DNA of 54,708 nt from a virus (IMGVR_UViG_3300049489_000161:1-54708), one strand, 5' to 3'; shown: positions 35,601 to 50,573, counted from the stretch's first letter. Program-made: numbers and translations. The notes: generated by a model from the sequence alone, not told the origin.

Positions 35601-38600
35601 ACAAGATGTTGGTGACGTTCTCGATCTGGTTACGGAAGAACGACTCCCCCAACGCCGACACCCACAGCGCAGGGTTGAACAGCCGGGTCGTGAGCGACAG
35701 ATGCACCGCGCCGCGCAGGAACAGCGACGAGTCTCGCAGCGACTCCTGGTACTGCGCACCGTTCTTGGCGTAGTCCTTCACGGACTTCTTCTTCTGGGGG
35801 CGGGCCTTGTTGTTCTTCAGCCACGCCTTCTGGTACGCGATCCGGTCGCTCATCTCCGTGATCTTGATGCTGCGCAACTGGTTCGCCATGTACTCATCAC
35901 TCGGAAGCCCGGCCAGCAGGCTGTGGGTGATGCTCATCGACTCCAGGATCGCGGGGTCTTGCATCAGAACCCGTGCATCAGGATCGACCGACAGGTACGG
36001 ACGGTTGCCGTCGGCATCCATCATCTTCGCCACGATCTCCTGCTTCACGCTCAGGCTCATCGTGTTGAAGTTGGGGTTCGATCCCTGGTACGTCACCCAG
36101 AACCCGTCCAGCGGGGACAGGAACATCGCCATGAACTCTTGATGGGACTCCAGCATCTGCCCCATCAGGGTCTCCACCCAGGAGCCCCAGTCGTTCTCGA
36201 CATCCTCGAACTTGCCGCGCTTGATCTGCTTGGTGGGCGACCACACACCGGCCTCGAACACCTTCCGCCAGAACACCACATGCTCCAACGGCACCATCGC
36301 ACCGTGCAACGGGTGCAGCCGGTGCGGGCCGGTGATGTTCTGACGCATCGCGGACACGGCCTCGATGTACATCTTCGCCGTGACCTGCTCGGTGTAGTCC
36401 GTTTGATCGGTGCGAGGGCCCGGAGTGCCGTACCACTGGCGCACCAGGAAGTCGATCTCCGCCCACTCCCCGTGCGTCAGCCCCAGGTCATCCAGCAGCT
36501 TGTTCCGGAGAACGACGGCCTTCTGCCATTCCTGCCGTTCCTTCTCCGTGTCTCCGCGCTGGATGACGTGCAAGTACGACGTCATGTCCTTCGTCGTGGA
36601 ATCCAGCCGGACATGCTCCAACGGGGTCAGATGCTTGAACGGGGAGAAGGACGGGTCTTCCGGCATGATCCGGGACACCATGCGCCACACCGTGTCCGCG
36701 TCATCCTCGAAGAGACTGATGGTGTTCTCTCCGTCGATGATCTCCTGCTGAGTGGGGAGCACCCTACGTGCGCCCTTCTTGCCGACCTCCTGCTGCTTGA
36801 CCAGCACCCGGCCGCCGACCGCTCCGGCGGTGATCCGGGAGTTGAACGGGGAAACGTCACTCTCACGGGAGAACGACGAATACGCCGCCCCGATCGGGTT
36901 CTTGTCAGACGCCACCACGTTGTTCAGTTGCAGCGACATCGGCCGCAGCATCGTCTTCGGTTTCTGCGGAGCGCCGTTCTTGTCCGGCAGCTCCTGGTAC
37001 ATGCGGACCCAGAAGGTCAGGTCTCCGTCAAAGTAGTGCTCCGGGACCACACGACCGTCGGGAAGCGTGATCTGGGGGAAAACCGCGTTCGCCTTGTCGA
37101 GGAGGTACTGGCGCATCTCCGGCCGACGCGGGTCGTTCAGCAACTGCGACAGGATCGCCGGCATGAACCCGACCATCGCCTCCCGGTTCGAGTCCGGCAC
37201 CGTCAGGAACCCCGGCAGCGACAACACCATGTCCGGGGTGACCCCCGGTGCGGCCAGTGCCGCCAGGACCGCGACGGCGATGTTGTCGATCGCGGAACTG
37301 CGGTTCGTGTCCAAGGCGATGCCGAGGGGCTGTACCGCGCCCGGCATCACCGACGCGAACAACTCGTTCAGTTCAGCGGCGAACGTCGTGAGCAGCCGTT
37401 CCTGATCCATCAACTGCAGGATCTGTGAACTGGTCAGCCCGTGGTTCATCTTGGACCAGCCATCGAGAAGCATCCGGAGCAGTTCTCTGCGCTCCGCGTC
37501 CGTACCCACCACGCCGGCAGGGACCAGGACATCCAGCAACTCGTTCTCGATGTCCCACCCGGTGACGGCGAACATGTTGCGGAACGTGTGGGATACGCCC
37601 CGGACACTGCCCTTGCTGGCGATGCCCTCCGTCGACGTGTACGACGCGATTCCGCGCGTGTTGCCTGCGATCGTCGACAGGTTGGACGTATAGCCCGTCT
37701 TCGGGTCCATGAACGAGATCGTGGTCTTGTTGCCAGTGCCCTCGGCGTGCAGCTTCAACGCCGCATCCTCGGTGACCAGGCCCACCAGTTCAAGCTTGCG
37801 GCGGTCCCGATCGACCTCCTCCACCTCCAACGGGGGTGGCACGGTCCAGTTCGCCTCCACATCCGCGGGACCGAACGCGACCCGCAGTTTCGGGAACGGC
37901 GTACCGTCAACGTCCTCCTGGTCCTGCCACTGCTGACGCAGGTTCTTGATGTGCTCCTCTTTCTCAGGGAGCTTGAACCCGATCCGCTGCAGCAGCACGT
38001 TGCCGTCACCGGCCACGCGGATGTACAGGTCACCAGCCATCACGGTGCTGCCCGGCTCGAAGACCTCCTTGCCCAGTTTCAGTGCGTCGAAGAAGTCCTT
38101 CAGCGCCTGCTCCGGCGGTTTCACCCCAACCTTGGTGGTGCCGTCAGGGTTCTGCTTGAAGAACGGGATCGAGTCCTTGTACTCGTTCCCGTACTTCTTG
38201 TCAGTCATCTGCCTCAGCAGCTGCTTGAAGCCGGGGCTGTTCGGATCTCCGTCGTCCGTCATGGCGAGCAGTTGCTTGGCGATCCGGTTGAACTGCGCCG
38301 TCTCACCCGTGCCCTTCTGGGGCGGGCCAAACAGCAGCAGATCGTTGGTGCCCGGCACAGAGACCGAGTAGTTCTTCGGCACCAGCAGCATGCTGAACCG
38401 GCGCCACTCCTTGGCCCGTGCCGGATCGATGACGCGGTTGCCCTCGGTGAGTTCGGAGAGCCAGTCCACCCATGCGTTCAGCTCGAAGTTGTCAGCGCGC
38501 TGCGGAGAGGTCTCCACCAGCGTCGACTCAAGCGCCTGCACCGTCTCGTTGACGTAGTCCTCGTCCTCGGTAGACGGCACGAAGAACTGCCCGGCATTGC

Positions 38601-41600
38601 CGAGATCCTTGTACCCGAGACCGCCCTCGAGCATCGCGCGGCTCAAGGACTGGCGCAGCAGCGTCGTCTTCGTGTTGCTGGCGAGCACGACGATCACACC
38701 TCGACGGGCGTACTCCTCCACCACCTTGGTGCCGACCTCGACCGCCTTGGTGTGCATCCCCCCGGCGTAATTGAGCAGCGACTGCAGATCGATGACCACA
38801 CCATCGCCGTAGGTCGGCGGGAACTTCATCCCGCTGAACCCGTCCTCCACCTGCTTGGCGGCCACCAGATGCCCGACGTTGCTGGTCTTCGACGCGGCCT
38901 GCTCATGCACAAACAGGATCCCCGAGCCGGCCATCAGCTTCTCCAGCGACTTCGCGTAGTGCGAGTTCAACAGATCGTTGACGACGTCCTGCGTCATGGT
39001 CTCCGGCAGCCCGAGGTACTTCAGCTTGCCGCCCAACTGCTCGGCCTGCACCATGTTCAGCAGCTGCTTCTTGTTGTCCTCGTTCTGGTCGTTGATCGCG
39101 CGCCGGCTCTCAAACCGGCGTTCGTCCTGCGCGGCCTGCTGACCCTGCCACTCCTGCAACCGCAGTTGCCGCAGTGTACGGATGTCCGTGCGCTCATCGG
39201 AGGCGATCAGGCGTGCCTTGGAAACGGGGGCCACCTTGCCGAGCACGGTGTTCCCCAGTTCCTCCAGCGTCACTTCCTCGCCAAGATCCCCCAGACCCAG
39301 CCGCTCCAGCCGTTCCTGGCTGTACTGCGGGGTGCTGTACATCTCAATGATGTCCACGTACGTCTTGTCCGTGCCGTACCCGGCCCGGCCCAGAATCCTC
39401 TGGGTGACTTTTTCGCTGTTCGCCACGAACTTCGGCGGGTCGCCAGCTTTGTCCAGACTCTCCAGGGGCATCGTGCCGCCCTGGGATTCGTACGCGATCC
39501 ACTTCTCCGCCGGCCAGACCTCCTTGAGACCTGTCGACGGGTTCCGCCCCATTACGACGTGGCGGGACTTGACGTACTTGTAGAGCGCGGTCAGGTCGTC
39601 CACCTGCAACCGGCCATGCGGGAACATCGCGGTGGCGAGCGCCATCGTCTTGCGTTCCAACATCTCCGTGAGCGTGGCCGAGTTCTCCTCGAAGTCCTTC
39701 GTGCGTCGCAACGCGCTGGTCCGGAACGCCCGGAACGACTGGCCCTGCTTCGTGATCGCGTCCAGCGGGATCTGCAACCCCGTGCCGAACACACCGCTGA
39801 CCGCGTACAGCATCGATGCGATCAGGCCGACCTCGCTGCGTCCTGCCGACGCCCGGCCCACGCCGTCGAAGTACACGTTGTTCGCGTACTCCGGGCCCGG
39901 CGGCTTCTTGTTGACGTCCACATAGGTGATCGAGATCGTGGCACCGGTGGCCGGGATCAGCTGCGGGTTCTTCGTCAGGTACTTGAGCAGCACGTCCAGG
40001 TTCAGCGACTTCAGAGGGGACGAGCGCGTGTTCTCGTCGAGCATGATCGTGTCGCCCACAATGTCGCGCAGTGGCACGGGCACGCCCGTGTCCGCCGGAG
40101 TGATGTTCACCTCCCACACCGCGTGGTTGTGGATGCGCAGGTACGCCTCTCGATCCAGGTAGTCCTGCAGATCAAGCGAGGTGTTCGGGTCCAGCACAAA
40201 CTCACGGGTGGTGGTGTGCGCCGCCAGGTCCACATCCTCCGAGGTGGCGAACCCTGTGGCGATCCACACATCCATCTCGTCGTTCGTGACGCCCTCCATC
40301 TGCACGGCCGCCTCCACCGAGGCCCCGTCCAGCAGCTTCCGCGCCTTCGCCAGGTGCATCGGGATGCGGTCGTGCCACTGCCCGAGCCTGTTCTGGGGGT
40401 ACAACTCGGTGAGGATCTGCTCCGCGGCCTCGTCCATGCGAGTCATGCGGGGGTCGAGCGTCGTGGCAGCGATCGCTTCGACGGCATCCAGCACCCGCGG
40501 GTGGAACAGCGGGTCGGACAGCGACGCCCAGGACGTGTCGTACAGCTTCCGCACGTCGTCGACGTTCTTGCCGAGGATGATCGGCAGCACCCGGGTGTCG
40601 TCGGACGACCGGACAGACCGTTCACTGATCGTCAACGTGGCACAGAACTCCCCGAGCTGATCCCACTGCTCGGGAGTCAGCACGTCCGCCGTCTGCTCGC
40701 TGAACACACGCGAGTCGTTGTTCGTCCACACCAACTCCCGGAACTTCGCCAGCAGCTGGTAGATGTTCTGCTCGGTGCCGGGGGTCGTATCGATCTTCGC
40801 CTTGTAGCCGGCGAACTTGTTGATCCGCTCCTGCGTACCGAGGAACTGGACGATCGCCGTCTTCTTCACGAAGTCGAACTTCTTGTCGTCGGCGGAACGA
40901 CCGTGGCTGAGTTGGAACGTCTTTAGGACGGAGGCGTACTCCATGCGGGACCGGAACGCCAGCAGATCCGACAGGTCAGCATTCTTCGCGTGGTCGATCC
41001 CGTCCTGCGCCTCCTGCATCCGGCGTTCCAGCTCCGCCCGCACCACCGGATCGGTGGCCGACTTCAACTGGATCCGGGCTTCCTCGAACCGGTCAACGGC
41101 GGCCAGGCCCATGAGGTCGCGCACCGTGTCCTCGTGGAGCTGCTTCTCCGCGTCCGACATCGGAGCGATGTACTCGAGGTACGCCGTGTCGTCGCCCCAG
41201 AACCGCTTCTGCAGTTCCGCTGAGATCAACTGCTGCAAGTCTGGCAGAGAGGCCTTCTGCACGTTCGCCAACGACTTCAGTACTCGGTAGACGCCGATCA
41301 CCAGCTTGTCCCGCACCTGCTGGAGACTCTGCTCGGTGACACTCTCGGCGGTCGTGTAGGCCACGATGAACGAGTCAATCATGTTGGAGATCGGGAAGAA
41401 CCCGTCCTCCCACGCCTCAGCGGTGCCCTCCTCCACGGCGGCGTTGCGGATGAACGCCTCGACCATGCTGATGTAGCGGTACGCCCGGCGCAGCTCCGGC
41501 TCGTCCGCTGTCGGGTTGAACAGCGAGGCGAACGAGGTGTCCTGCAGCAGATGTCCGATGTTGGAGGTCTGCACACCGTTCGAGTAGGTCTGCACCGTAC

Positions 41601-44600
41601 CCACCGGGTTCACGTCCCGCATCGTCGGGAACAGCACCAGCTTGGCGAACTCCTGCGTGCGAGGATCATGCAGCATCTGCAGCGCCGTCTCCTCGTCGGA
41701 CATGTCCAACTCGACCAGGCGGCCATTCTCCAACTGGATGCGCACCGGGCCCTTCGCCAGCTTCGACAGGTTCGTCGCCACCTGATCCCAGGACAGCGTC
41801 GTCAGCGCCGCGGACTCCGCCCGCAACGCATTGCCGAACCCCCACATGTCGGCCATCGTGATCGCCTCACCCATCGGGCGGGTCAGATCAGGCGGCAGCC
41901 CCTTGTCGTGGGCACGGAAGAACATGTCGTACATCGCCGTGTACAACTGCTGCATCGCGTTCGGGCCGACACCATCAGGGAACGCCTGGGCATTGCGGAT
42001 TGCCCGGCGCAGGAACCCCAGCATCTCGGCGGAGTTCGTGTCCTTGCCGGTGTTCTGCACCTCGGCGCGGATCTCCTCCACCGTCTGCCGCTGACTCACC
42101 GGCTTCTTGTTGTTCTCCGCGATACGTGCGGCGATCTCGTCTTTCTGCCACGCCAGCTCCTCCTGCATCGCTGTCGTGATCCGGGCGTTCGAGTCGCTGT
42201 CCGCCTTGCGCTGCACAAGAGCCTTCGACATCGGCTCGGCCATCTGGGAGAAGTCGGCGATCGCATCCAGCACCTGCTGCTGGCTGTTCCCCGCGCCCCA
42301 CTGGTTGCGGGCATTCACCTCGTAACCGGCTTTGTCGTCATCGAACGGCAGCAGTTCCGGGCGTCCGGCCAGCCACACCGGGTTGGCGTTGATCTGCGTG
42401 TACAACTCCTCGATGCTCTGCGCCCTGGCGACCGCCTCCCAGAACAACTGCCGCTGCCGGCCGCCGTCCTCGAGCGTGTTCAGGATGTACGCCGTCTGCA
42501 GGAACCGGGACTGGATCTGATCCCAGCGCACCACCCCCTCGACACCGTCCTCCAGCTTGTCCTTCGTCGGAGTGTTCGCCATCACGTTCCACTCGGCGAT
42601 CAACGTGTTGACGTGCCAGATCAGCGCAGCCTTCTTCGGATCGGTCTCGGTGAGCGCCTGCTCCACCCAGTCCCGCATGTGGACCTCGCCGCCCACCACC
42701 TCGACGACGCCCAGGGCGGCGCCGTTCGGGATCATCGCGGCGATCTTGCGGGCAACCCGCTCGTCCCCGGTGCGCAGCATGTCGTTCAGCACGGCCCGGC
42801 GGTCGGAGGCATCCAGCGACGGATACAGCATGGCCCAGGCGTCGATCATCTCCGACAGATCCTTCAGCCCGTTCTCGAACTGGCGCCGGGCCTTGTCGGA
42901 ACGGTCCTGCCGCTTCTTCTGCTCCGCCGATGTGCTGGTACCCAGCGCGTCGATCAGCATCGTGTAGGAGTTCATCTGCAGCGCGCCGTCCGGCCCGGTC
43001 TGCGTCAGCACGTCCGCGCCCCACGGAGGGTTGCCGATCCCATGTTTCTTCGAGTAGTCGGCCGCCCGCCTCAACATCGCCATGAACGCGGCGCGGTCCT
43101 TCTCGTTCTTCGACAGGGACAGCTCCATCAACTGCCGCAGCGTCACATGCGGGCCGATGTACATCGAGGCCTTGCCCAGCAGCTCGTACAGCGACGTGTC
43201 GGAGAACACCTCCATCATCGCCAGCGCCGCCGTGTTCGAGTTGCCGCCCTGCTTGGCGTTGTTGCGGGTCAGCGGGCGCAGCGTCTGGATCTTCTTCATG
43301 ATCGGAGAGTCCGGATCGGCACCCTCCTGCATCTCGAGCTCGACGTCGAGGCTCTTGCCGAGCAGCATCTGCAGCATCGACACCTGCTCGCCCGGCACGA
43401 TGCCGAACACCCCGCCGTCCTTCACCACCGCCGGCACCCGCATGTTGGCGACGTACAGCAGCAGCTCCGTCTCCGACAGGTTCGGGAACTTGCCGGCGAT
43501 CCCCTCCGAGGCGATGATCTGCTTCAGCCAGTAGACCGTGCGCTCCTGGATCCGGTCGCGGCCCAGCATGCCCTCGCTGTCCGACTGCGTCTTGCCGGCA
43601 CCCAGCTTCGCGTACAGCTCCACCAGCTTCGCCTGGCCTGCGACCGCGTCCGCCATCTGATCGGCGTCCATCGCGCCCAGCACGGTCGCCGAGTTGTACA
43701 GCGCCGAGTAGTGGAGGAACTGCTCGGGGCGGGTCTGCGCCGCCGATCCCAGCATCATCAACGCATCACCATGCGTCTTCGCCATCCACCGTGCCACTCG
43801 CTTCAGCACCGAACTGGGTGCAGGAACCGCGGGCTTCAGCGGGTTCACGATGACGTCCTCACGGTTGACGTCGCGCCAGTAGGCGAACTCCTGCTGGATC
43901 GCGTCGAACTCCACCGAGATCATGTTCCAGATCTGCAGCGCCTCCGGGCGGCCCGTGCTGTCACCCATCGCCAGCAGCGCCTCCCCGCCAAGGTCGTACA
44001 TCCCCTTCACCAAGATCGTGCGGGCGTCCGTGACATTTGCCAGGACGTTCGCCTGGAACTGCTTGAGCAGCGCCCGGAACTCCTTGGCCGGCTGCAGCAC
44101 CCTGCCGTACCGCTGCTCCAGCCGGGCGCTCAACCGCAGCAGTCCCAGCACCACCTTGTCGTGCAGGTCGGAAGGGTTCAGCGGATCGGAGAACGCCTCA
44201 ATGTAGATGGCCTCCGCATCCGGCACCCCGATGTTGATCTCCCACCCGGTGTCCGATCCCACCACGGTGCCCTGGTCATCCACCCAGGTCGTGTTCCGCT
44301 GTGCGTACTGGTTGCCGCGCCGGATGTTCGCCAGCTGCTCCGGCGGCTCGTAGGTACTGGCGATCTCCACCGCGTTGTCACCGTCGTGATCGCCGTTCAA
44401 CGTCTTCAGCACGGACTCGTCGAAGCTCATCGTGCCGTGGATGTCGGCCGCCGACATCACCAGCGACACCTGCGGCACGAACACCGCGAACGATCCCTGC
44501 CCAGTCAACGGGTTGCGGACCATCTTCAGCTCGACGACCTTGCGCATCGCCTCCGCCATCGAGTCCGTCACCGGCACCAGGTTGCCCGTCGCCGGGTCTT

Positions 44601-47337
44601 TCACCTTGAACTTCTTCTCGAACACCCAGTTCAGCTTCTCGTTGAACACCCGGGTCGCCTCGGTCTTGGCGGCCGTATCGTCGAACGAGATCTGGACGTA
44701 CTTCAAGTACAGGTCGTACAGCAGCCCCGGCTTCTGCCGGGTGCCCACCAGCATCTCGGCGGCCTGTACCGTCTCCGCCAGATCCGCGATCGTGTCGTTC
44801 GCCACCCGGATGTTGTCCTGCGCCTGCGCCGCAGCATCCGTATCCCCGGCGGCCTGCGCCGCGGCCAGCTCCTGGGTGTACGTGTCGAGCAACTGCTGCG
44901 CACGTTCGCGCTGTGTCTGCAGACCATCGACGTTGGTCAGCAGGTTCTCCATCACGGATTCCATCGACATCACCGCAGCGTTCACCGCGAACTCGTTGCC
45001 GTCGACACGACCGTCCTCGAGCACCACCCGTGAGGAGGACCGGCCTGTCAGCAGCGAAGACTTGCCACCGATCGAGTCCTTCTTGCGGGTGTCCGCCGCC
45101 ACCGCGTTCTGCCGCAGCAGATCCTGGATCTCACGCGCCACCGGGGAGTCGAACGAGGCCATCTTCTGGCCCTCGTTCAGCATGTTCATCAACGCCCGGA
45201 CCTCGGCGTCCTCCTTCGGGGTGGCGATCGCCAGCTTCTCGATCTCCGACTTCGTCATCCCCGAGGTGATCTGCTTCCACTCCTGCTCGGTCGGGGGATT
45301 CCCGGACATCCGCATCGCGTACAGCAACCGGGCCCGGTTGTTCACCACCTGATCGGAGGTGGCCCGCTTGTTCAGCGTGCCCAGCCCCATGCCCATGCCG
45401 CCGGCGAACCCGTACGCTGCGGCCCACGCCATCTGCGCCGGATCGAGATCCTCGCTCAGACTCATCGGCTCGAACGCCGCCTGGATGAACTCCTCACCAC
45501 CTTCGGCATACCCGGTGATCAGCGCGTCCCGGAACCGGGAACCCTGCCGAGTCATCCCAACCGCCGCGTTGTAGTAGTCGTCCATGAACGAAGCCGTGCC
45601 GTCATCCAGCATCCGGGCCTGCCGCGCCAGATAACTAGTCGGCACCATCCGCAGGAACTCGCTCGGCGCGGCCAACTGCAACGTCGGGGAGATCTTCACG
45701 ATGTTGCCGTCAGCATCCCGGCGGAACCGCATCCCGTTCAACACCTCGTCGTCGGCACGGGAGGCCAGCCAATCCCTGGTACGAGTCGGCAGCACGGCGT
45801 CCGCCACCTTGGTGGTGACCCTCTCCTGCACGTCCCGCAACGTGGTGTACTGCAACGGCTTGTCCGTCACTTTCCCGAGGATCTTCGGGGCGGCAGCCGT
45901 GGCCAGGTCATCCGCGCTCTGCCCCGGCGTGGTTCTCGCGGTGGCGGTCGCGGCACTGGCCCGGGACGCCTGCGCCGCCCGTCCGATCGCGCCGGCCATT
46001 CCCACCTGCAGCGCATCGATCGTCGTCTTGCCGATCGCGCCGACCCACTCCTGACGGGTCGTGTAGGGGTCGAAATCCCCGCGGGCCTCGTTCCATCCCT
46101 CACCGACGACCAGCTGACCCACCCCGCCGATCGTCATCGCACTCATCGTGCCCATGTACATCGCACGGCCCGCCGGGTTGGAGAACTGCATCACGCCATC
46201 GGCCAGCGCCGCCCCGACATCCAGCACCTGGACCCAGCCCGGAGCCTTGCGCGACCCATCCGGGTTGGTGTCGTAGAACGCCACCGTGTTGTCACCGATG
46301 TCGCCGAACCCCACCTCCGACATACCGTGGCTCAGGTTCTGCGTCACGTTCATCAACTTCGTGCCGACCTGCGCATACTGTTGCAGCCACGTCCCGGCGC
46401 CGCCGAACAACTGGTCCGTACCCTCATACCGGGCATTCGCGCGACTGGCGATCACACTGGCACGGGCCGCCGTCTCCACCAGCTCGTCCTGGTTCAAGTA
46501 CCCGGCCACCGTGCCCAGGCCGAACCCGATCACACCACCGATCGCCGCTCCGACCGGGCCGCCGATACTGCCGAACGCGGCACCCTGCGCCGCTGTGGTG
46601 AGACCGGCACCGGCGATCAGCGCATTGTTCTGCCACCCCTCGAACCGATTCTCCGTCGCCTCGAGATCGTCCTTGTACTGCTCGGCCTGTGGCGCGTACA
46701 ACGCCTGCTCCGACCGCTCGCTGCGTTTCGCGTTCACCGCCAGGGACAACGCCTCAGGGTTCGAGCGCAACGCCTCGAACTCCCGGCCCTTCTCCTCCCG
46801 GGTCATCACGAAGTCCGACATCATCGTGTCGGCCGTCTTCGCGTCGAACGTGTCGTAGACGTTCCCCTGCTTCTGGCCGTTGACGAAGATGTCCCCGAAC
46901 CGCAGATCCTTCTTCTCGTCGTCCCACGTCACGACACCCGTGGCCTTGTAGCCCTCGGTGTCGGCGCCCGGATCGAACTGGGAGAAGAACACACTGGCCC
47001 GATCCTCATCGAACGCCTTCTGCTGCCAGACGTTCGACTGCTTGATCATCTGGTTGTAGAAGTCGGTGTTCCACCCGTTCTCCGTGCCACCGGCATTCGC
47101 CCCCGTGTACCACTGCGGGGCGACCTCCATCATCGAATCCTGAGGAGCCCACGGCTGAAGACCCTTCCGGCCCTGGTCGATCCACAGATCCTGGTCGCGG
47201 GCGAACCGCTCGGACGCCTGCGCCATCCCCAACGGCGCGGCAGGACTGTCAGCCTGCTTCTTGAACTGGGACTGACCACCCTTGAAATCGACCACGACGT
47301 GACGCCCCTTCGATGACCGCTGCTCTTGGGCCACCAT
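32683..47337 (-). CDS. 4884-aa giant virion protein, predicted single-chain two-barrel RNA polymerase / ejection protein
   Basis: Uninterrupted ORF; VRNP...NGDHDGD (aa 940-987), GSTVMAGDLYIRV (~3100), LKLHAEGTGNKTTIS (3194-3208); Gly-rich hydrophobic segments. Confidence 0.75.
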   Translation of the reverse strand: MVAQEQRSSKGRHVVVDFKGGQSQFKKQADSPAAPLGMAQASERFARDQDLWIDQGRKGLQPWAPQDSMMEVAPQWYTGANAGGTENGWNTDFYNQMIKQSNVWQQKAFDEDRASVFFSQFDPGADTEGYKATGVVTWDDEKKDLRFGDIFVNGQKQGNVYDTFDAKTADTMMSDFVMTREEKGREFEALRSNPEALSLAVNAKRSERSEQALYAPQAEQYKDDLEATENRFEGWQNNALIAGAGLTTAAQGAAFGSIGGPVGAAIGGVIGFGLGTVAGYLNQDELVETAARASVIASRANARYEGTDQLFGGAGTWLQQYAQVGTKLMNVTQNLSHGMSEVGFGDIGDNTVAFYDTNPDGSRKAPGWVQVLDVGAALADGVMQFSNPAGRAMYMGTMSAMTIGGVGQLVVGEGWNEARGDFDPYTTRQEWVGAIGKTTIDALQVGMAGAIGRAAQASRASAATATARTTPGQSADDLATAAAPKILGKVTDKPLQYTTLRDVQERVTTKVADAVLPTRTRDWLASRADDEVLNGMRFRRDADGNIVKISPTLQLAAPSEFLRMVPTSYLARQARMLDDGTASFMDDYYNAAVGMTRQGSRFRDALITGYAEGGEEFIQAAFEPMSLSEDLDPAQMAWAAAYGFAGGMGMGLGTLNKRATSDQVVNNRARLLYAMRMSGNPPTEQEWKQITSGMTKSEIEKLAIATPKEDAEVRALMNMLNEGQKMASFDSPVAREIQDLLRQNAVAADTRKKDSIGGKSSLLTGRSSSRVVLEDGRVDGNEFAVNAAVMSMESVMENLLTNVDGLQTQRERAQQLLDTYTQELAAAQAAGDTDAAAQAQDNIRVANDTIADLAETVQAAEMLVGTRQKPGLLYDLYLKYVQISFDDTAAKTEATRVFNEKLNWVFEKKFKVKDPATGNLVPVTDSMAEAMRKVVELKMVRNPLTGQGSFAVFVPQVSLVMSAADIHGTMSFDESVLKTLNGDHDGDNAVEIASTYEPPEQLANIRRGNQYAQRNTTWVDDQGTVVGSDTGWEINIGVPDAEAIYIEAFSDPLNPSDLHDKVVLGLLRLSARLEQRYGRVLQPAKEFRALLKQFQANVLANVTDARTILVKGMYDLGGEALLAMGDSTGRPEALQIWNMISVEFDAIQQEFAYWRDVNREDVIVNPLKPAVPAPSSVLKRVARWMAKTHGDALMMLGSAAQTRPEQFLHYSALYNSATVLGAMDADQMADAVAGQAKLVELYAKLGAGKTQSDSEGMLGRDRIQERTVYWLKQIIASEGIAGKFPNLSETELLLYVANMRVPAVVKDGGVFGIVPGEQVSMLQMLLGKSLDVELEMQEGADPDSPIMKKIQTLRPLTRNNAKQGGNSNTAALAMMEVFSDTSLYELLGKASMYIGPHVTLRQLMELSLSKNEKDRAAFMAMLRRAADYSKKHGIGNPPWGADVLTQTGPDGALQMNSYTMLIDALGTSTSAEQKKRQDRSDKARRQFENGLKDLSEMIDAWAMLYPSLDASDRRAVLNDMLRTGDERVARKIAAMIPNGAALGVVEVVGGEVHMRDWVEQALTETDPKKAALIWHVNTLIAEWNVMANTPTKDKLEDGVEGVVRWDQIQSRFLQTAYILNTLEDGGRQRQLFWEAVARAQSIEELYTQINANPVWLAGRPELLPFDDDKAGYEVNARNQWGAGNSQQQVLDAIADFSQMAEPMSKALVQRKADSDSNARITTAMQEELAWQKDEIAARIAENNKKPVSQRQTVEEIRAEVQNTGKDTNSAEMLGFLRRAIRNAQAFPDGVGPNAMQQLYTAMYDMFFRAHDKGLPPDLTRPMGEAITMADMWGFGNALRAESAALTTLSWDQVATNLSKLAKGPVRIQLENGRLVELDMSDEETALQMLHDPRTQEFAKLVLFPTMRDVNPVGTVQTYSNGVQTSNIGHLLQDTSFASLFNPTADEPELRRAYRYISMVEAFIRNAAVEEGTAEAWEDGFFPISNMIDSFIVAYTTAESVTEQSLQQVRDKLVIGVYRVLKSLANVQKASLPDLQQLISAELQKRFWGDDTAYLEYIAPMSDAEKQLHEDTVRDLMGLAAVDRFEEARIQLKSATDPVVRAELERRMQEAQDGIDHAKNADLSDLLAFRSRMEYASVLKTFQLSHGRSADDKKFDFVKKTAIVQFLGTQERINKFAGYKAKIDTTPGTEQNIYQLLAKFRELVWTNNDSRVFSEQTADVLTPEQWDQLGEFCATLTISERSVRSSDDTRVLPIILGKNVDDVRKLYDTSWASLSDPLFHPRVLDAVEAIAATTLDPRMTRMDEAAEQILTELYPQNRLGQWHDRIPMHLAKARKLLDGASVEAAVQMEGVTNDEMDVWIATGFATSEDVDLAAHTTTREFVLDPNTSLDLQDYLDREAYLRIHNHAVWEVNITPADTGVPVPLRDIVGDTIMLDENTRSSPLKSLNLDVLLKYLTKNPQLIPATGATISITYVDVNKKPPGPEYANNVYFDGVGRASAGRSEVGLIASMLYAVSGVFGTGLQIPLDAITKQGQSFRAFRTSALRRTKDFEENSATLTEMLERKTMALATAMFPHGRLQVDDLTALYKYVKSRHVVMGRNPSTGLKEVWPAEKWIAYESQGGTMPLESLDKAGDPPKFVANSEKVTQRILGRAGYGTDKTYVDIIEMYSTPQYSQERLERLGLGDLGEEVTLEELGNTVLGKVAPVSKARLIASDERTDIRTLRQLRLQEWQGQQAAQDERRFESRRAINDQNEDNKKQLLNMVQAEQLGGKLKYLGLPETMTQDVVNDLLNSHYAKSLEKLMAGSGILFVHEQAASKTSNVGHLVAAKQVEDGFSGMKFPPTYGDGVVIDLQSLLNYAGGMHTKAVEVGTKVVEEYARRGVIVVLASNTKTTLLRQSLSRAMLEGGLGYKDLGNAGQFFVPSTEDEDYVNETVQALESTLVETSPQRADNFELNAWVDWLSELTEGNRVIDPARAKEWRRFSMLLVPKNYSVSVPGTNDLLLFGPPQKGTGETAQFNRIAKQLLAMTDDGDPNSPGFKQLLRQMTDKKYGNEYKDSIPFFKQNPDGTTKVGVKPPEQALKDFFDALKLGKEVFEPGSTVMAGDLYIRVAGDGNVLLQRIGFKLPEKEEHIKNLRQQWQDQEDVDGTPFPKLRVAFGPADVEANWTVPPPLEVEEVDRDRRKLELVGLVTEDAALKLHAEGTGNKTTISFMDPKTGYTSNLSTIAGNTRGIASYTSTEGIASKGSVRGVSHTFRNMFAVTGWDIENELLDVLVPAGVVGTDAERRELLRMLLDGWSKMNHGLTSSQILQLMDQERLLTTFAAELNELFASVMPGAVQPLGIALDTNRSSAIDNIAVAVLAALAAPGVTPDMVLSLPGFLTVPDSNREAMVGFMPAILSQLLNDPRRPEMRQYLLDKANAVFPQITLPDGRVVPEHYFDGDLTFWVRMYQELPDKNGAPQKPKTMLRPMSLQLNNVVASDKNPIGAAYSSFSRESDVSPFNSRITAGAVGGRVLVKQQEVGKKGARRVLPTQQEIIDGENTISLFEDDADTVWRMVSRIMPEDPSFSPFKHLTPLEHVRLDSTTKDMTSYLHVIQRGDTEKERQEWQKAVVLRNKLLDDLGLTHGEWAEIDFLVRQWYGTPGPRTDQTDYTEQVTAKMYIEAVSAMRQNITGPHRLHPLHGAMVPLEHVVFWRKVFEAGVWSPTKQIKRGKFEDVENDWGSWVETLMGQMLESHQEFMAMFLSPLDGFWVTYQGSNPNFNTMSLSVKQEIVAKMMDADGNRPYLSVDPDARVLMQDPAILESMSITHSLLAGLPSDEYMANQLRSIKITEMSDRIAYQKAWLKNNKARPQKKKSVKDYAKNGAQYQESLRDSSLFLRGAVHLSLTTRLFNPALWVSALGESFFRNQIENVTNILSGNNLGRGGKTTAAIGSKLGVEPKFSMEQLKMLDQLATILGDSTEFIGEIFGEMTYKSGLLEPGGTVNAEGQTVPSGGKVSRTLERTATTVSRVMSDPTIGQSQKSVAIRYLAAAIEYLELAPNNVVSVETLVAEMKKDPLWLKKKFSTKKANPHQMGINAVGNIRSQKNTVAAKLFMRPIETLCAQEGFGTWIGHALKIPFLFTRFNVNALTYLTGMTGVDQMVAMTLSGRENPWRSWIVRNRSKDPSLEFKPMDFNDVIETLDLSRLFVRGMVTQAGLFAFGMMGAEILGFGGEDEEEKRRRRQATYLNIPLVYDPQKAANDFRYQDAIFLDDIPMLGTLFKKDESGRAAIVPHWVLRQFTSPLMGVVRFFETGDIRLISQGFLDGVSAIPNSVLSLYRDADLTAKLLQESAEADARVESPERLSTTTLLGISIVGMYEKALIENQFVNGIRSAFDKYDRNPWLVAMTNPKDGGTLDLQQGSSLPQQTDALQQYQKEVPVLDDNGEPVIGADGKPVMEPVSGLAYMTRSGGDAYLHQYAENNATAAVLLSLFTGQITGPSSFARENMVVKTQNVPTEAVDNATLEALVYARFFGAGGSGLLSQDDIGSILKTQAEAADVWWNQGDIDAQSGKLYKEQLQQFDRLKAALIPQLEQRDIAAGVSSSPESLEAEADAMADAMMMGTSISRNGREELSIEGQEAMVKSLMAGLVTLDDPGFQGFYASQEQRDLLQARILDRIVQDGVNRGMTETAAKFRANRYYFGDSTDPSSPGLREILYSNQIPSQPSAEYNQLNATYVIGPDGRPWATPFPRQSIAQALGLPVPAGMIKPANGMSLDERGNAVDDVKNLNTGRASLEPTQVTGQVTPNDSILEQIKKKTYTPKDTISGGGRFSGYRSYGGYSRRGGGGYGGGGGGGFTPNSYITRMSFFTGMSAAQIDSVSMINTNSPLIRRADVRRERVSSERGRLKQWQ

Positions 47338-47590
47338 ATCGGACGCCGCGGCGGAAGATCGGGTCTGACGCGAACCCCCACACCCATCCCTGGGTATCCC
47401 ACATGCGGCCGGGTTGTCTCACGAAACGTCTCAGCATGGGTTCAGATCAGAGCGAACCCATCACCCGGACGCCAACAACAGGAAACACCCACAGCAACTG
47501 TAGGGACGGGATACCCACAGAGGGCTTTTCAGGGGTTTCGTTGGGTGCGGTTAGGTGTCAAGGGTGAAAAATGGAAACTTTTGTGTGAAG

Positions 47591-47720
47591 TACCAAAACA
47601 AACAATAGAAACAAATAACACAACACTATACCCCCTATACATATTGATATGTATGGATATGGGTATTACTGAAATCCATTTCAGGTGTTGTGGTTGATTA
47701 GGTTGTGTCTGGTTTTGGTA
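47591..47720. promoter_or_regulatory. AT-rich branched inverted repeat between the divergent arms
   Basis: taccaaaac/gttttggta, cacaacac/gtgttgtg, ataccc/gggtat, atacatat/atatgtat, ctgaaat/atttcag. Confidence 0.6.
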
Positions 47721-47747
47721 ATGATGCCAATGAAAGGACTGTCTCAC

Positions 47748-48047
47748 ATGTCTGAGAATCCACTGCAAAGTCTGCTCGGTGCTGCTTCAGCTGCTGCAAT
47801 CGCTAACATCTCTCGTACTCCGGAACAGCGTGCCGCTGATTCAGCCGGTGTTGACTTGCTGTCCGCACAGGTCCTCGGTGTTCTCATCGAACAACGAAAG
47901 GAGCTGGCGGGTCAGCACAAGATTGAGCGTGAAGACGCGAAGGCCAACAACATGGCTGTCGGCTCTGCCGAATGGAAAGAGATGGTCGATGGACAAAAGC
48001 GAGCAATCGCTGCCATCGATGCAATGATCGCACGCCGCGGTCGTTAA
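47748..48047 (+). CDS. Hypothetical early protein (99 aa)
   Basis: AAAGGA RBS before MSENPL; followed by a terminator. Confidence 0.8.
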   Translation: MSENPLQSLLGAASAAAIANISRTPEQRAADSAGVDLLSAQVLGVLIEQRKELAGQHKIEREDAKANNMAVGSAEWKEMVDGQKRAIAAIDAMIARRGR

Positions 48048-48053
48048 GAGTGT

Positions 48054-48085
48054 GAGATCCCTTCGGGGATCTCCTCTCTTATTTT
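48054..48085 (+). terminator. Rho-independent terminator with cUUCGg loop
   Basis: gagatccc-ttcg-gggatctc followed by a pyrimidine/T run. Confidence 0.8.
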
Positions 48086-48242
48086 CTATCCCGCTTTTTT
48101 TCACACGCTCACACGTTGACGTCTTCAATAACGTCAAACAGAAACTTCCTCGCCTAGTCGCGTGACGTTTGCACTCAGGCTACTGAGTGACCGGCTCCAT
48201 CTTGGCGAGGTGTGTGTGAGTGTGTGATTGTTTGCGGGATAG
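48086..48242 (+). ncRNA. Candidate structured ncRNA (or ssDNA structure)
   Basis: Nested stems ctatcccgc/gcgggatag, tcacacgctcacac/gtgtgagtgtgtga, ttgacgt/acgtcaa, cctcgcc/ggcgagg, cactcag/ctgagtg. Confidence 0.5.
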
Positions 48243-48327
48243 GTACTTCACATACGCTACGCGGCGTAGCTCAAATCACTCGACACCGTTGATGATCATC
48301 AAGGTTGTCCGGTGATCAGCCTCAAAA

Positions 48328-48533
48328 TGTAGACACCCCTCACTGTCTACAGGGTGTCTACATCCGGCACCGAGGTGTCTACATTCAGCCCAGATGCCTG
48401 GTTTTCTCGCACGTTAGTACGAAAACCCGGCCCTTTGGTGGTATGTAGACACATGTAGACAACGAAAAAAACCCCTTTAAGGAAAGTGTATATATATAAA
48501 GGGGGTCAACTTTTTGTGACTACGGTGTCTACA
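48328..48533 (+). repeat. TGTAGACA-box cluster including element copy B (48444-48533)
   Basis: Boxes at 48328, 48344, 48355, 48376, 48444, 48454 and 48526, plus a degenerate one at 48517. Confidence 0.9.
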
Positions 48534-48626
48534 CCCCAGTCCCAGCGCCCCAGCGTCGGGTGACACTCCTGATTCCGGGCGACGACATGGCTCCACTTCA
48601 GTGCGGATCTCACTCCTAATCACCTC

Positions 48627-48657
48627 TCGGTTGCGACCTCGTATCGGTTGCGACCTC
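48627..48657. repeat. 14-bp direct repeat TCGGTTGCGACCTC x2
   Basis: 48627-48640 and 48644-48657; degenerate third copy near 48663. Confidence 0.85.
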
Positions 48658-48811
48658 CCTTCGTTTGCGAACTCAGACACCATGCGTGGTGTCACATACC
48701 AAAAAACTGGTTTTGGTTGGAAAAGGAAAGAGAGAGATAAGGAGAAAGAGTCAAGAGTCACACCAGATGGGACATCCATAGTGACCAAGACTCTCTCGGA
48801 AAGGAGCTCAA

Positions 48812-49096
48812 ATGAGCGTTCCCACATTCATCGGCTATCTCCTGCTGGCTTTCACCGCAGGACTGGTGTTGCACCCAGTGTTCGCCTCCGTCTCACGAAA
48901 GATCAGCGATCGCCTGTGGAACCGCAGGGTGAACGCAGTCGTAAACAGTCTTCGGGCTGACGGCTGGACAGTCTTGGAGCCGGACCACACCGTTCCGACG
49001 CAAGCCACCTCCACTCGCCCTACCGTCCCTGACGACTGGGACTCCTGGGGCGTGGTGGAGACAGGCCTTGGCTCCACTGCCCGGGGTCAGGTGTGA
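48812..49096 (+). CDS. Membrane-anchored hypothetical protein
   Basis: AAGGAG RBS; N-terminal TM segment. Confidence 0.75.
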   Translation: MSVPTFIGYLLLAFTAGLVLHPVFASVSRKISDRLWNRRVNAVVNSLRADGWTVLEPDHTVPTQATSTRPTVPDDWDSWGVVETGLGSTARGQV

Positions 49097-49410
49097 AGGC
49101 AATGACGGCAGTGGTGCTTCTCAGCATCACTGCCGTCACTGCCGGTTGCACCTCCGCTACGACTCCCGAACCCATCAGCACTACACCGCTGCGGTTCTCC
49201 GACAACAGCCATGATGATCGTGACCTCAACAACGAGGCCTTCGATCTGATCTGGTGGGAGATGACACACAACTCGCCCGGCGCGGCTACTGCCCTGTGCA
49301 TCTCAGCACAGGTGCAGACCGCCGCGTCGTGGCAGACGTTCGACAACAACACCGGGCATGTCTTCCCGCGCACCGCATGGTTGCGTGGAATCTACCGTCA
49401 CTGCCCGTGA
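49093..49410 (+). CDS. Putative lipoprotein
   Basis: MKAMTAVVLLSITAVTAGC signal with lipobox-like TAGC; GTGA overlap. Confidence 0.65.
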   Translation: MKAMTAVVLLSITAVTAGCTSATTPEPISTTPLRFSDNSHDDRDLNNEAFDLIWWEMTHNSPGAATALCISAQVQTAASWQTFDNNTGHVFPRTAWLRGIYRHCP

Positions 49411-49413
49411 CCT

Positions 49414-49803
49414 CAACGACCTGAGCATGTCGTGAAACTGCTCCCTCACTACGGCCGAGGCACCCGGCTAGTGGGTAGAACAGAGTGCCTGGGCTGCGGT
49501 CCAACGGAGGTACCTCGTAAGAGCGTGAGCAGCACCGCAGTGCGTGGCTCACACACAAGTTTCCCTGGGTAGCTCCCGGGGATGGCGTGGCTGAATAACT
49601 CCTGTGGTTCCGGGAGTAAAGCAGCGCATGGGTCACGACAAGCGGGATCTCGGGCAGAGATCCTGCGCTGTGGAGGCACAGCTCAGTGACTGTCTTACCG
49701 GACAACATGTGAGTCAACGGCGACATCCGACAACCAAGGAGCCCGCTGTTGTATGAGAGTGGTACCTCATCGCCAACGTCCTGAGCATGACGTGAAACTG
49801 CTC
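49414..49803 (+). ncRNA. Candidate structured ncRNA locus bracketed by two 30-nt pseudoknot repeats
   Basis: Repeats at 49414-49443 and 49774-49803 with a compensatory base change; many internal hairpins. Confidence 0.55.
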
Positions 49804-49875
49804 ACCTCAGACGTGGCCCCGCTGCTGCTGCTCCCCCGCCAGCAGCGGGGTCACCTTCCACAAGGAGAATCAGCA

Positions 49876-50130
49876 ATGCCAAGCGCCGATCCACCTGTCC
49901 ACGCGGTCAAGATCACGCTGACGACAGGCGACATCGAGGCACAGTTCATCTGCTCCAAAGGGGCATGCGGACTGTGCCGGGAGTTCCAGTCGTACGCCAA
50001 GTACGAACCCTGGACCTACTACGACGGGCCCGTGAAGCACTCGCTGCACAACGGGGTCATCACCCTGCGTCATGCACCAGACTCCGTCGTCTGGTCATAC
50101 GGCGCGAAGTTCACAGACAACCCTCGCTGA
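49876..50130 (+). CDS. Hypothetical Cys-containing protein (84 aa)
   Basis: AAGGAG RBS; CSKGACGLC. Confidence 0.7.
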   Translation: MPSADPPVHAVKITLTTGDIEAQFICSKGACGLCREFQSYAKYEPWTYYDGPVKHSLHNGVITLRHAPDSVVWSYGAKFTDNPR

Positions 50131-50225
50131 ATCACAAGCCCTGAACGAGCGAGGGTCGGTGGACCCAGGCAACCGGACACAACCGTGTCCACCTGGGTCC
50201 ACCACCTACCCACAAAGGAGGGGCA

Positions 50226-50573
50226 ATGAGCCCACGTAGTACCGCAATGGAGCGCATCGCCAAGCTGCAGGAGCAGCTCGCCCAGGAAACGCAGAAGCTG
50301 CGTACCAAGGCGATCAAGGCTGCGCAGTCTGCAGTCGAGAAGGCCACCACCAAGGTGGAGTCCAAGAGCAAGCGAGTCGTGCGTCTCACCGAGTCGCAGG
50401 CCCGGGGTGCCGAGCTGCTCGACACTGCCAAGGCCGAGCTCGCTGAAGCCCAGGCTGAACTGGCCGCAGCGAAGGACGAGTACGAAGCTTTGCTCGACGG
50501 CAACGACTTCATCGAGCTCGAGCTGGATGTCGTGAGTGACAACAATGACGCTGACGCCGGCATCGACGCCTGA
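50226..50573 (+). CDS. Coiled-coil hypothetical protein
   Basis: AAGGAGG RBS; heptad-like Ala/Glu/Lys pattern. Confidence 0.8.
   Translation: MSPRSTAMERIAKLQEQLAQETQKLRTKAIKAAQSAVEKATTKVESKSKRVVRLTESQARGAELLDTAKAELAEAQAELAAAKDEYEALLDGNDFIELELDVVSDNNDADAGIDA

Follow-up and report, generated by a model that had tools for sequence, protein, structure and literature searches.

Two 30-nt repeats in a complete 54.7-kb virus record from IMG/VR (54,708 nt; hereafter the window, meaning the whole stretch analysed) are probably paralogous copies of a single H-type RNA pseudoknot, one conserved almost base for base in phages that infect Actinobacteria, Cyanobacteria, Proteobacteria, Firmicutes and Bacteroidota. 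The same fold is found in bacterial chromosomes of many phyla, yet it is absent from Rfam, placing it among the most widespread unassigned RNA elements. The element is a self-contained knot of about 27-30 nt that acts as sense-strand RNA, transcribed together with the flanking genes. We tentatively favour, at somewhat short of even confidence, the reading that it is a self-contained roadblock or punctuation element in polycistronic RNA, by analogy with a viral element discussed below. Should it prove to be a barrier, it would give the viral exonuclease-resistant RNAs their first prokaryotic counterpart, and would explain how phages set the boundaries and lifetimes of segments in long transcripts; if it is cut, or cuts itself, it would represent a new processing principle. 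Either way it would provide a compact, portable insulator part for synthetic operons, and annotating it would tidy many intergenic regions that are now blank. The two copies and their parts are as follows.

49414-49443, plus strand: pseudoknot copy 1, CAACGACCTGAGCATGTCGTGAAACTGCTC (49.4 bits against the family model R1)
49416-49420 with 49429-49433, plus strand: stem 1 of copy 1
49421-49422, plus strand: loop 1 of copy 1 (CU)
49423-49427 with 49439-49443, plus strand: stem 2 of copy 1
49428, plus strand: single nucleotide between the stems of copy 1
49434-49438, plus strand: loop 3 of copy 1 (GAAAC)
49774-49803, plus strand: pseudoknot copy 2, CAACGTCCTGAGCATGACGTGAAACTGCTC (49.6 bits against R1)
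49776-49780 with 49789-49793, plus strand: stem 1 of copy 2
49783-49787 with 49799-49803, plus strand: stem 2 of copy 2

A repeat search of the window finds the copies to be 93% identical and 360 nt apart from start to start, in agreement with the coordinates and spacing given in the initial annotation. They differ at two sites only (A at 49419 against T at 49779, and T at 49430 against A at 49790), and both positions are partners in one stem-1 pair, so that A-U in copy 1 becomes U-A in copy 2 (ACGAC/GUCGU and ACGUC/GACGU, respectively); comparison of the copies thus confirms the compensatory swap described earlier. Stem 2 is GAGCA/UGCUC in both, and in copy 2 there is a possible extra pair between U49782 and A49804. 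When the 24-nt core is sought with up to three mismatches, the 54,708-nt record contains two sites, both on the plus strand, and there are none in 100 shuffles. Since the stem-1 letters that the copies have in common vary freely across the family, the two are probably within-phage duplicates separated by one compensated change.

Nested folding, which cannot represent a pseudoknot, forms the hairpin of one stem or of the other, with an energy of about -5 kcal/mol (z about -0.9, not significant alone). Energy by itself fails to single the motif out; the fold is supported instead by the way its relatives covary. Across 84 distinct aligned sequences the stem-1 pairs 7-22, 8-21 and 9-20 show 43, 42 and 32 double changes, the stem-1 covariation score is reached by none of 500 shuffles, and the proportion of paired cells falls from 87% to 22-39% in controls with slid partners. 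The closing pair is C-G in 81 of the 84, and the outer fifth pair is unpaired in 61 of them; stem 1 therefore normally has 4 bp, one fewer than the 5 bp of this window, and this usual length had escaped the initial annotation. Because the first search patterns fixed stem 2, we rescanned 241 sources (1.89 Mb) with stem 2 left free and obtained 204 distinct matches in which stem 1 is paired, 169 of them with GAGCA/UGCUC as stem 2. Stem 2 is fully paired in 23 of the 35 non-consensus instances, whereas 1000 partner shuffles give 11.1 on average and never more than 16. Among these variants with intact pairing are AAGCA/UGCUU (four instances), GGGCG/CGCCC, GAGUA/UACUC and GGGCA/UGCCC (two each), GGACA/UGUCC, UAGCA/UGCUA and GGCCA/UGGCC, and compensation is therefore seen at all five stem-2 pairs. 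The compensated variants bear out the earlier assignment of GAGCA and TGCTC to stem 2, and the broader proposal of a selected H-type pseudoknot is supported by hundreds of homologous loci that covary in both helices. G-U wobbles exceed A-C mismatches by 35 to 23, in line with action as sense-strand RNA.

Family members share a stem 1 of 4-5 bp with free sequence and an almost invariant C-G closing pair, an 8-nt loop (CUGAGCAN), a loop 3 of the form NN-AAAC, a stem 2 of 5-6 bp, usually (U)GAGCA with UGCUC(A), and a G-poor 3' tail; the AAA and CU letters were fixed in every search pattern and model of the family. The base between the stems is most often U (101 of 183, with A in 57, C in 20 and G in 5), and the base ahead of AAAC is variable. 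Position +1 behind the knot is A in 89 of 183 instances, which would lengthen stem 2 by a U-A pair, and G is scarce from +1 to +8, each of these positions having it in 7-23 of 183 instances. There is no enclosing helix between the 5' and 3' flanks (a mean of 4.25 bp compared with 4.19 for shuffled partners), and a following hairpin is not enriched, starting within 4 nt behind the knot in 34 of 185 instances compared with 64 of 173 control windows.

At least 119 loci in IMG/VR match the core when the loop and tail are fixed and the 3' arm of stem 1 is free, and in nearly all of the matches listed the upstream bases are complementary to the free stem-1 positions. A covariance model, as suggested in the initial annotation, returns 146 matches in 100 sources. 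The family is huge and crosses phyla, which the initial annotation had not noticed. A scan of one genome per prokaryote species gives at least 118 further loci matching the core; the bacterial matches listed span Saccharibacteria, Aminicenantes, Lachnospiraceae, cyanobacteria, Bacteroidota, Actinomycetes and others, and among the matches listed the three inner stem-1 pairs are all formed in 76 of 121, with two of the three formed in 38. Named phages identified by BLAST and the model are Mycobacterium phage Labelle, Paracoccus phage ParKuw1, Synechococcus phage S-EIVl and Erwinia phage Berlingot; Mycobacterium phage PegLeg has a variant form of the knot, and Vibrio phage D456 has a weaker match that is antisense to annotated genes. 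The Rfam search also proposed earlier places no Rfam 15 family on either knot: there is no gathering-level match in the window, matches at E values up to 10 over 49350-49900 are confined to manA and two chance miRNA models away from the knots, and nothing falls on the knots in 49 further loci. The knot is not described in Rfam 15 or in the literature searched, where supplementary motif lists might contain it. The available text of PMC10690425 and of two 2026 preprints describes no such element, and the 8,495 IMG/VR candidates of the former and the HRIMA list of PMC10085705 may include it. Small triplex-type H-type pseudoknots are already known (coremin and the luteoviral frameshifters), and it is the occurrence in phages and bacteria that is new.

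The phages that carry the knot have different RNA polymerases; one belongs to the Autographiviridae, and the siphovirus carriers presumably rely on the host polymerase. This spread across polymerases and phyla fits an element that needs no lineage-specific partner. It also bears on whether the repeat acts as DNA, for example as a phage RNA-polymerase promoter (an N4-type hairpin or a T7-type promoter), a recombination site or a mobile repeat. Such a role would be in keeping with a short, conserved, intergenic and multi-copy sequence (there are six copies in contig L078 and six to seven in L064, and the leader cassettes are themselves repeated in L078), but we consider it very improbable, as a promoter would not be expected to covary in two interleaved helices, and the carriers range from the Autographiviridae phage and siphoviruses to bacterial chromosomes. 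In addition, a T7-like promoter sequence, recognized by eye, lies about 50 nt upstream of the knot in locus L008, placing the knot inside the transcript, and no terminal repeats or target duplications were seen.

Long ORFs that flank the knot are mostly oriented with it (230 compared with 55). Of 131 instances in viral loci, 108 are preceded by the stop codon of a long ORF at no more than 150 nt and 103 are followed by an ORF start at no more than 120 nt, with median distances of 14 nt and 27 nt in those that have both. The genes behind the knot include those for an endonuclease, a Mom-like protein, a primase-helicase, thymidylate synthase, DUF932 proteins and many unknowns, and since they are functionally unrelated the role of the knot is likely to be general. 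The next unit need not be a gene for a protein. One example is the tRNA that lies 3-9 nt downstream of the knot in five loci; a tRNA begins 7 nt behind the knot in L197, and in PegLeg the knot fills the gap from a CDS stop to tRNA-Arg. No locus has a tRNA less than 249 nt upstream of the knot, and at most loci there is no tRNA close to it, so that adjacency to tRNAs is no rule. A second example is provided by the DUF2800 RNAs (RF02960, 153-156 bits), which start 1 nt behind the knot in L173 (5432-5592) and L198 (5051-5208). Placement beside ORFs, tRNAs and non-coding RNAs indicates that the knot marks boundaries of units, usually on the 5' side of the next one. In its length of 30 nt, its H-type layout, its A-rich loop 3 and its conserved bases at the junction, the knot would suit a small riboswitch aptamer of the preQ1-I size class, although unrelated genes, tRNAs and other non-coding RNAs follow it, there are several copies per genome, the Shine-Dalgarno sequence or ribosome-binding site lies outside the fold, and no Rfam riboswitch matches; we give this reading hardly any credence. 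The diversity of downstream genes, together with carriers that use host or phage polymerases, argues against a riboswitch and a phage promoter alike.

Two recurrent arrangements near the knot were observed in AT-rich viral contigs. In L078 and L064, which are AT-rich phage contigs, the knot and a leader of about 34 nt that lacks a Shine-Dalgarno sequence form a cassette that is repeated ahead of several small genes, including those for DUF932 proteins. Others (L003, L006, L017, L023, L058, L073, L095, L115, L033 and L077) have, immediately before the knot and upstream of an endonuclease gene (phrog_452), a conserved GC-rich element of about 65 nt (GCACCCCGUCACUGGGGAGUCGCAG) that forms a hairpin; this element has no Rfam match in L033 and L077, the two loci scanned.

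In the window the order is a lipoprotein-like gene, the first knot, 120 nt and a manA-like RNA, the second knot, a hairpin and the next gene, with the following features.

49093-49410, plus strand: upstream ORF of 105 aa with a lipoprotein-like N-terminus (TGA stop at 49408-49410)
49445-49475, plus strand: predicted hairpin 1 nt behind copy 1, from a fold of 49414-49482
49563-49780, plus strand: manA-like structured RNA (Rfam RF01745, model positions 1-192 of 192)
49813-49854, plus strand: strong GC-rich hairpin 9 nt behind copy 2, an inverted repeat with no U-run
49876-50130, plus strand: downstream ORF of 84 aa, whose leader contains copy 2 and the GC-rich hairpin

Stem 1 of copy 1 begins 6 nt past the TGA stop of the upstream ORF, and neither this ORF nor the downstream one has a PHROG or Pfam match. 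The hairpin at 49445-49475 is specific to the window and is not a feature of the family. The fold of 49774-49860, which takes in copy 2 and the GC-rich hairpin, has a z score of -5.1; this hairpin is not called as terminator-like, and it precedes a Shine-Dalgarno sequence (AAGGAG, 49862-49867) and an ATG at 49876. No promoter or terminator consensus was found close to either copy, and ARAGORN reports no tRNA or tmRNA in the window.

The manA-like RNA lies within the 330 nt separating the copies and was not recognized in the initial annotation. The match is full-length, but it scores 50.7 bits (E 4.3e-12) against a gathering cut-off of 55.2 for RF01745, so we refer to it as manA-like and do not file it as a member. 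It starts about 120 nt behind copy 1 and the 3' end of the match runs into copy 2. Near-identical contigs from RNA runs in three studies (156, 198 and 203 nt) cover only 49573-49784; they begin at 49573-49587, and those of two studies end within the 5' portion of copy 2, at 49775 and 49784. The runs yielded contigs only, which give no reading of RNA ends, strand or level, and stretches they do not cover are uninformative; these contigs fit a discrete, abundant manA-like RNA with its 3' end near the start of copy 2, although contigs cannot prove ends. The association is not general, as none of 89 distinct manA-core sites in IMG/VR has a knot within 600 nt. In the available text of PMC2864571, manA RNAs are reported from marine phages and bacteria as possible cis-regulators, and a 2026 preprint (10.64898/2026.07.01.735769), as far as its available text goes, describes them forming decamers and 60-mer cages. 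The genome that contains the manA-like RNA of the window has a high GC content, comes from freshwater sediment and appears to be actinophage-like, a setting remote from the marine cyanophages for which manA was described. We also note that related gut-metagenome DNA keeps the copy-1 and copy-2 modules with a different insert of 189 nt in place of 49556-49779, and that in a 73-nt contig 49546 is joined to 49800; the stretch from knot to knot thus behaves like a module that can be exchanged.

The distances to neighbouring genes raise two further readings. The knot could be a translation element acting on a terminating or initiating ribosome, either as an insulator against re-initiation or as a standby site or enhancer. 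Stem 1 follows the stop codon at the distance seen for recoding stimulators, and the knot often precedes a start codon by 5-35 nt, sometimes without a Shine-Dalgarno sequence. The UGA of the knot itself is the stop of a conserved 20-codon ORF in about 25 bacterial loci, and coremin, in the available accounts of it, blocks ribosomes and drives frameshifting. We nonetheless regard a role in translation as improbable, because the same knot precedes tRNAs, DUF2800 RNA, hammerheads and non-coding stretches, there is no three-base periodicity in the distance from the stop codon, and the loop U-R-R may be UGA, UAA, UAG or UGG with compensating changes in the partners.

Alternatively, the knot could cap a 3' end, blocking 3'-to-5' exonucleases and stabilizing the upstream message or non-coding RNA after a cut a few nucleotides downstream by RNase P at a tRNA, by a hammerhead, or by an endonuclease acting in the tail, which is poor in G as described above. 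CCU most often comes 8-14 nt after the upstream stop codon, there are known cut sites 3-9 nt behind the knot (tRNA 5' ends and the hammerhead site of L148), and the two copies of the window come after a gene and after the manA-like RNA, respectively. Where spacers are long, however, the knot is near the downstream start in 16 of 31 cases (8 of the 16 being close relatives) and near the stop in 7 of 31; about 25 bacterial loci already have an intrinsic terminator behind the knot; and the manA-like RNA contigs end ahead of most of copy 2, which counts weakly. A cap is quite unlikely on this evidence.

Hammerhead ribozymes flank the knot in two loci at the following positions.

L148, 7271-7325: hammerhead
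L148, 7541-7595: hammerhead
L144, 7395-7432: hammerhead

One of the hammerheads near knots starts at a knot's last bases and one is about 200 nt upstream. In L148 a type III hammerhead starts at the last two bases of the knot and scores 41.2 bits against a cut-off of 48.5 (E 5e-08); the L144 match is weaker. These neighbours bear on a reading in which the knot is a processing signal that is itself cut, either by a universal nuclease that reads shape (of the RNase P type, with the knot as a stacked helix resembling a tRNA acceptor) or by self-cleavage. Like small ribozymes, the knot combines a conserved core with one helix that covaries freely, and it occupies the intergenic slots of phage ribozymes and adjoins hammerheads in both loci. 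It is spread across phyla and precedes tRNAs like another tRNA-sized unit, and the ends of the RNA-run contigs of two studies at 49775 and 49784, within copy 2, provide a weak hint of cutting. Phage small ribozymes such as the hammerhead, twister, pistol and hatchet are alike in having a conserved core beside covarying helices, but the knot is far smaller than any of these. It has 30 nt with nearly all bases paired, and no natural self-cleaving class as small as 30 nt is known. With a hammerhead directly behind there would also be no need for a second cutter, the bases that follow the knot are not ACCA (with A at +1 in only 89 of 183), and there is no T-loop-like part. Overall we judge it rather unlikely that the knot is itself cut, self-cleavage making up a minor and doubtful share of this reading. 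A knot that is catalytic, as a ribozyme of about 30 nt and the smallest natural class, or that serves as a universal structure-read cut mark from Actinobacteria to Saccharibacteria, is a long shot; if true, it would punctuate polycistronic RNA as tRNAs do in mitochondria. Punctuation of polycistronic RNA by tRNAs and the pseudoknotted tRNA-like acceptor arms of the TYMV type are the comparison systems here. They resemble the knot in placing a stacked helix of about 10-11 bp between units, and the knot sits directly ahead of tRNAs in an array-like manner, whereas it has neither a T-loop nor a conserved ACCA tail.

The roadblock reading that we tentatively prefer would work as follows. The knot, transcribed with the flanking genes, would stand at unit boundaries inside polycistronic RNA, where loop-3 adenines in the groove of stem 1 probably stabilise the compact fold through putative base triples. 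It would then act as a mechanical roadblock or insulator, as coremin does, with a presumed polarity such that travellers moving 5' to 3' (RNase J, scanning RNase E, ribosomes and Rho) would be stopped, and the segment of RNA behind the knot would be delimited and shielded. This fits the placement ahead of mRNAs, tRNAs and non-coding RNAs and the spread across phyla. Several observations do not sit easily with it. The second hairpin on which Xrn1 stalling by coremin depends is generally absent here, and the coremin loop rule is not followed. Hosts of the Erwinia group are not known to have RNase J, and since the knot is present in an Erwinia phage no one exonuclease can be the universal target. 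The stem-2 consensus, kept in 169 of 204 matches, is conserved beyond what a simple roadblock obviously requires; a sequence-specific partner or catalysis would be in keeping with such constancy. A cut by a hammerhead or RNase P 3-9 nt behind the knot would part it from the RNA that it should shield, and the manA-like RNA contigs begin at 49573-49587 and not at copy 1, which as contig evidence weighs little.

Coremin (xrRNA-C), found in beny-, cucumo- and other RNA viruses, is the closest published relative of the knot, and the following comparison is drawn from the available text of PMC6546385, PMC10520033 and PMC10321173. Its first hairpin has 3-4 bp and requires a pyrimidine-purine closing pair (PMC6546385). 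The loop follows the rule YGAD, or YGNNAD for six-base loops, with hepta- and octaloops able to function without a defined rule, and in the spacer UU-AAA-CUAC the two U's are tolerant of change and AAA and CUA are unchangeable (PMC6546385, PMC10520033, PMC10321173). According to the same sources coremin stalls Xrn1 only with a second hairpin, blocks scanning ribosomes and stimulates frameshifting, and a selected variant, xrRNA-WCC, has a true antiparallel stem 2 of 3 bp and a 1-nt loop 1 and frameshifts without the second hairpin. Coremin and the phage knot are alike, so far as these accounts go, in the short first stem, the C-G closing pair, the pyrimidine as first loop base, the tandem copies and the untranslated or intergenic location. 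Both read NN-AAA-CU, although these letters were fixed in the family search patterns and their conservation there is not independent. After this shared part the phage knot continues with GCUC and coremin with AC. The phage knot departs from the published loop rule, with an 8-nt loop in which the first base is C and the second is U rather than G, and its stem 2 is of 5-6 Watson-Crick pairs compared with a non-canonical or 3-bp contact in coremin. The downstream hairpin described for coremin is generally absent from phage knots, although both window copies do have one, 1 and 9 nt behind, and the carriers are bacteria and phages, in which Xrn1 is absent. As the loop rule is not followed, the second hairpin is absent and the Watson-Crick stem 2 is much longer, the knot is not a member of the coremin family; plausibly it works like coremin, as a compact fold that would be hard for travelling enzymes to open. 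The luteoviral frameshifting pseudoknots of BWYV and PLRV, in the available text of PMC10321173, are similar in size, H-type layout, a loop 1 of 1-2 nt and an A-rich loop 3, which in the luteoviral case lies in the stem-1 groove; the phage knot differs in having no slippery heptamer ahead, a longer stem 2, and a position after stop codons or in non-coding RNA.

Four other identities were considered and rejected. First, an HDV-like or theta ribozyme would not fit into 30 nt holding two helices only, as there is no P3/L3 hairpin and no Rfam match; the HDV family has a nested double pseudoknot with P1, P1.1, P2 and P3. Second, UGCUC with a U-rich tail has some likeness to boxA, but UGCUC is a covarying arm of stem 2, it reads UGGCC in PegLeg, and those tails that are GC-rich speak against boxA. 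Third, the loop UGA is not a general stop signal, as UAA, UAG or UGG stands in its place in some instances, with compensating changes, and its position is unrelated to the frame of the upstream stop. Finally, the knot reads CUGAGCA and is not a hammerhead, for all the likeness of its CUGA and GAAAC to the hammerhead boxes: there is a C in the place of G8, the G, A, G, C and A of the supposed box form covarying pairs with UGCUC, and no Rfam model of a hammerhead or other ribozyme matches the knot. According to the available text of PMC10085705, classic and permuted hammerheads keep unpaired CUGANGA and GAAA boxes joining three stems.

About 25 bacterial loci from several phyla (including L127, L131, L155, L160, L169, L177, L179, L186, L187, L200, L206, L207, L222, L233 and L242) contain a conserved 20-codon ORF, M-[KT]-[KR]-[FY]-x-[IV]-P-R-x-A-H-C-x-x-G-C-x-x-x-S, whose stop is the UGA inside the knot loop; an intrinsic terminator usually comes next. 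Changes at third codon positions indicate that the ORF is translated, and no NCBIfam or Rfam model matches the peptide or its ORF. In 7 of 16 loci examined it adjoins, convergently, a gene for the RfaE-II heptose-1-phosphate adenylyltransferase, and others are beside MerA or ArsR genes.

The phage in the window represents a new lineage, and a megablast search with 49000-50300 gives no match to named phages. It encodes DNA polymerase, primase, helicase and terminase. Beside the structural genes there is a leftward ORF of 4,884 aa (32683-47337, minus strand) with no Pfam or PHROG match. Between this giant ORF and the rightward small genes is a segment of about 1.5 kb (47338-48811) that has no convincing gene and a lower G+C content (0.57), and that includes a tandem 21-nt repeat (48353-48394), a palindrome (48275-48316) and long inverted repeats (48375-48452 and 48086-48242); this segment may be an origin or control region.
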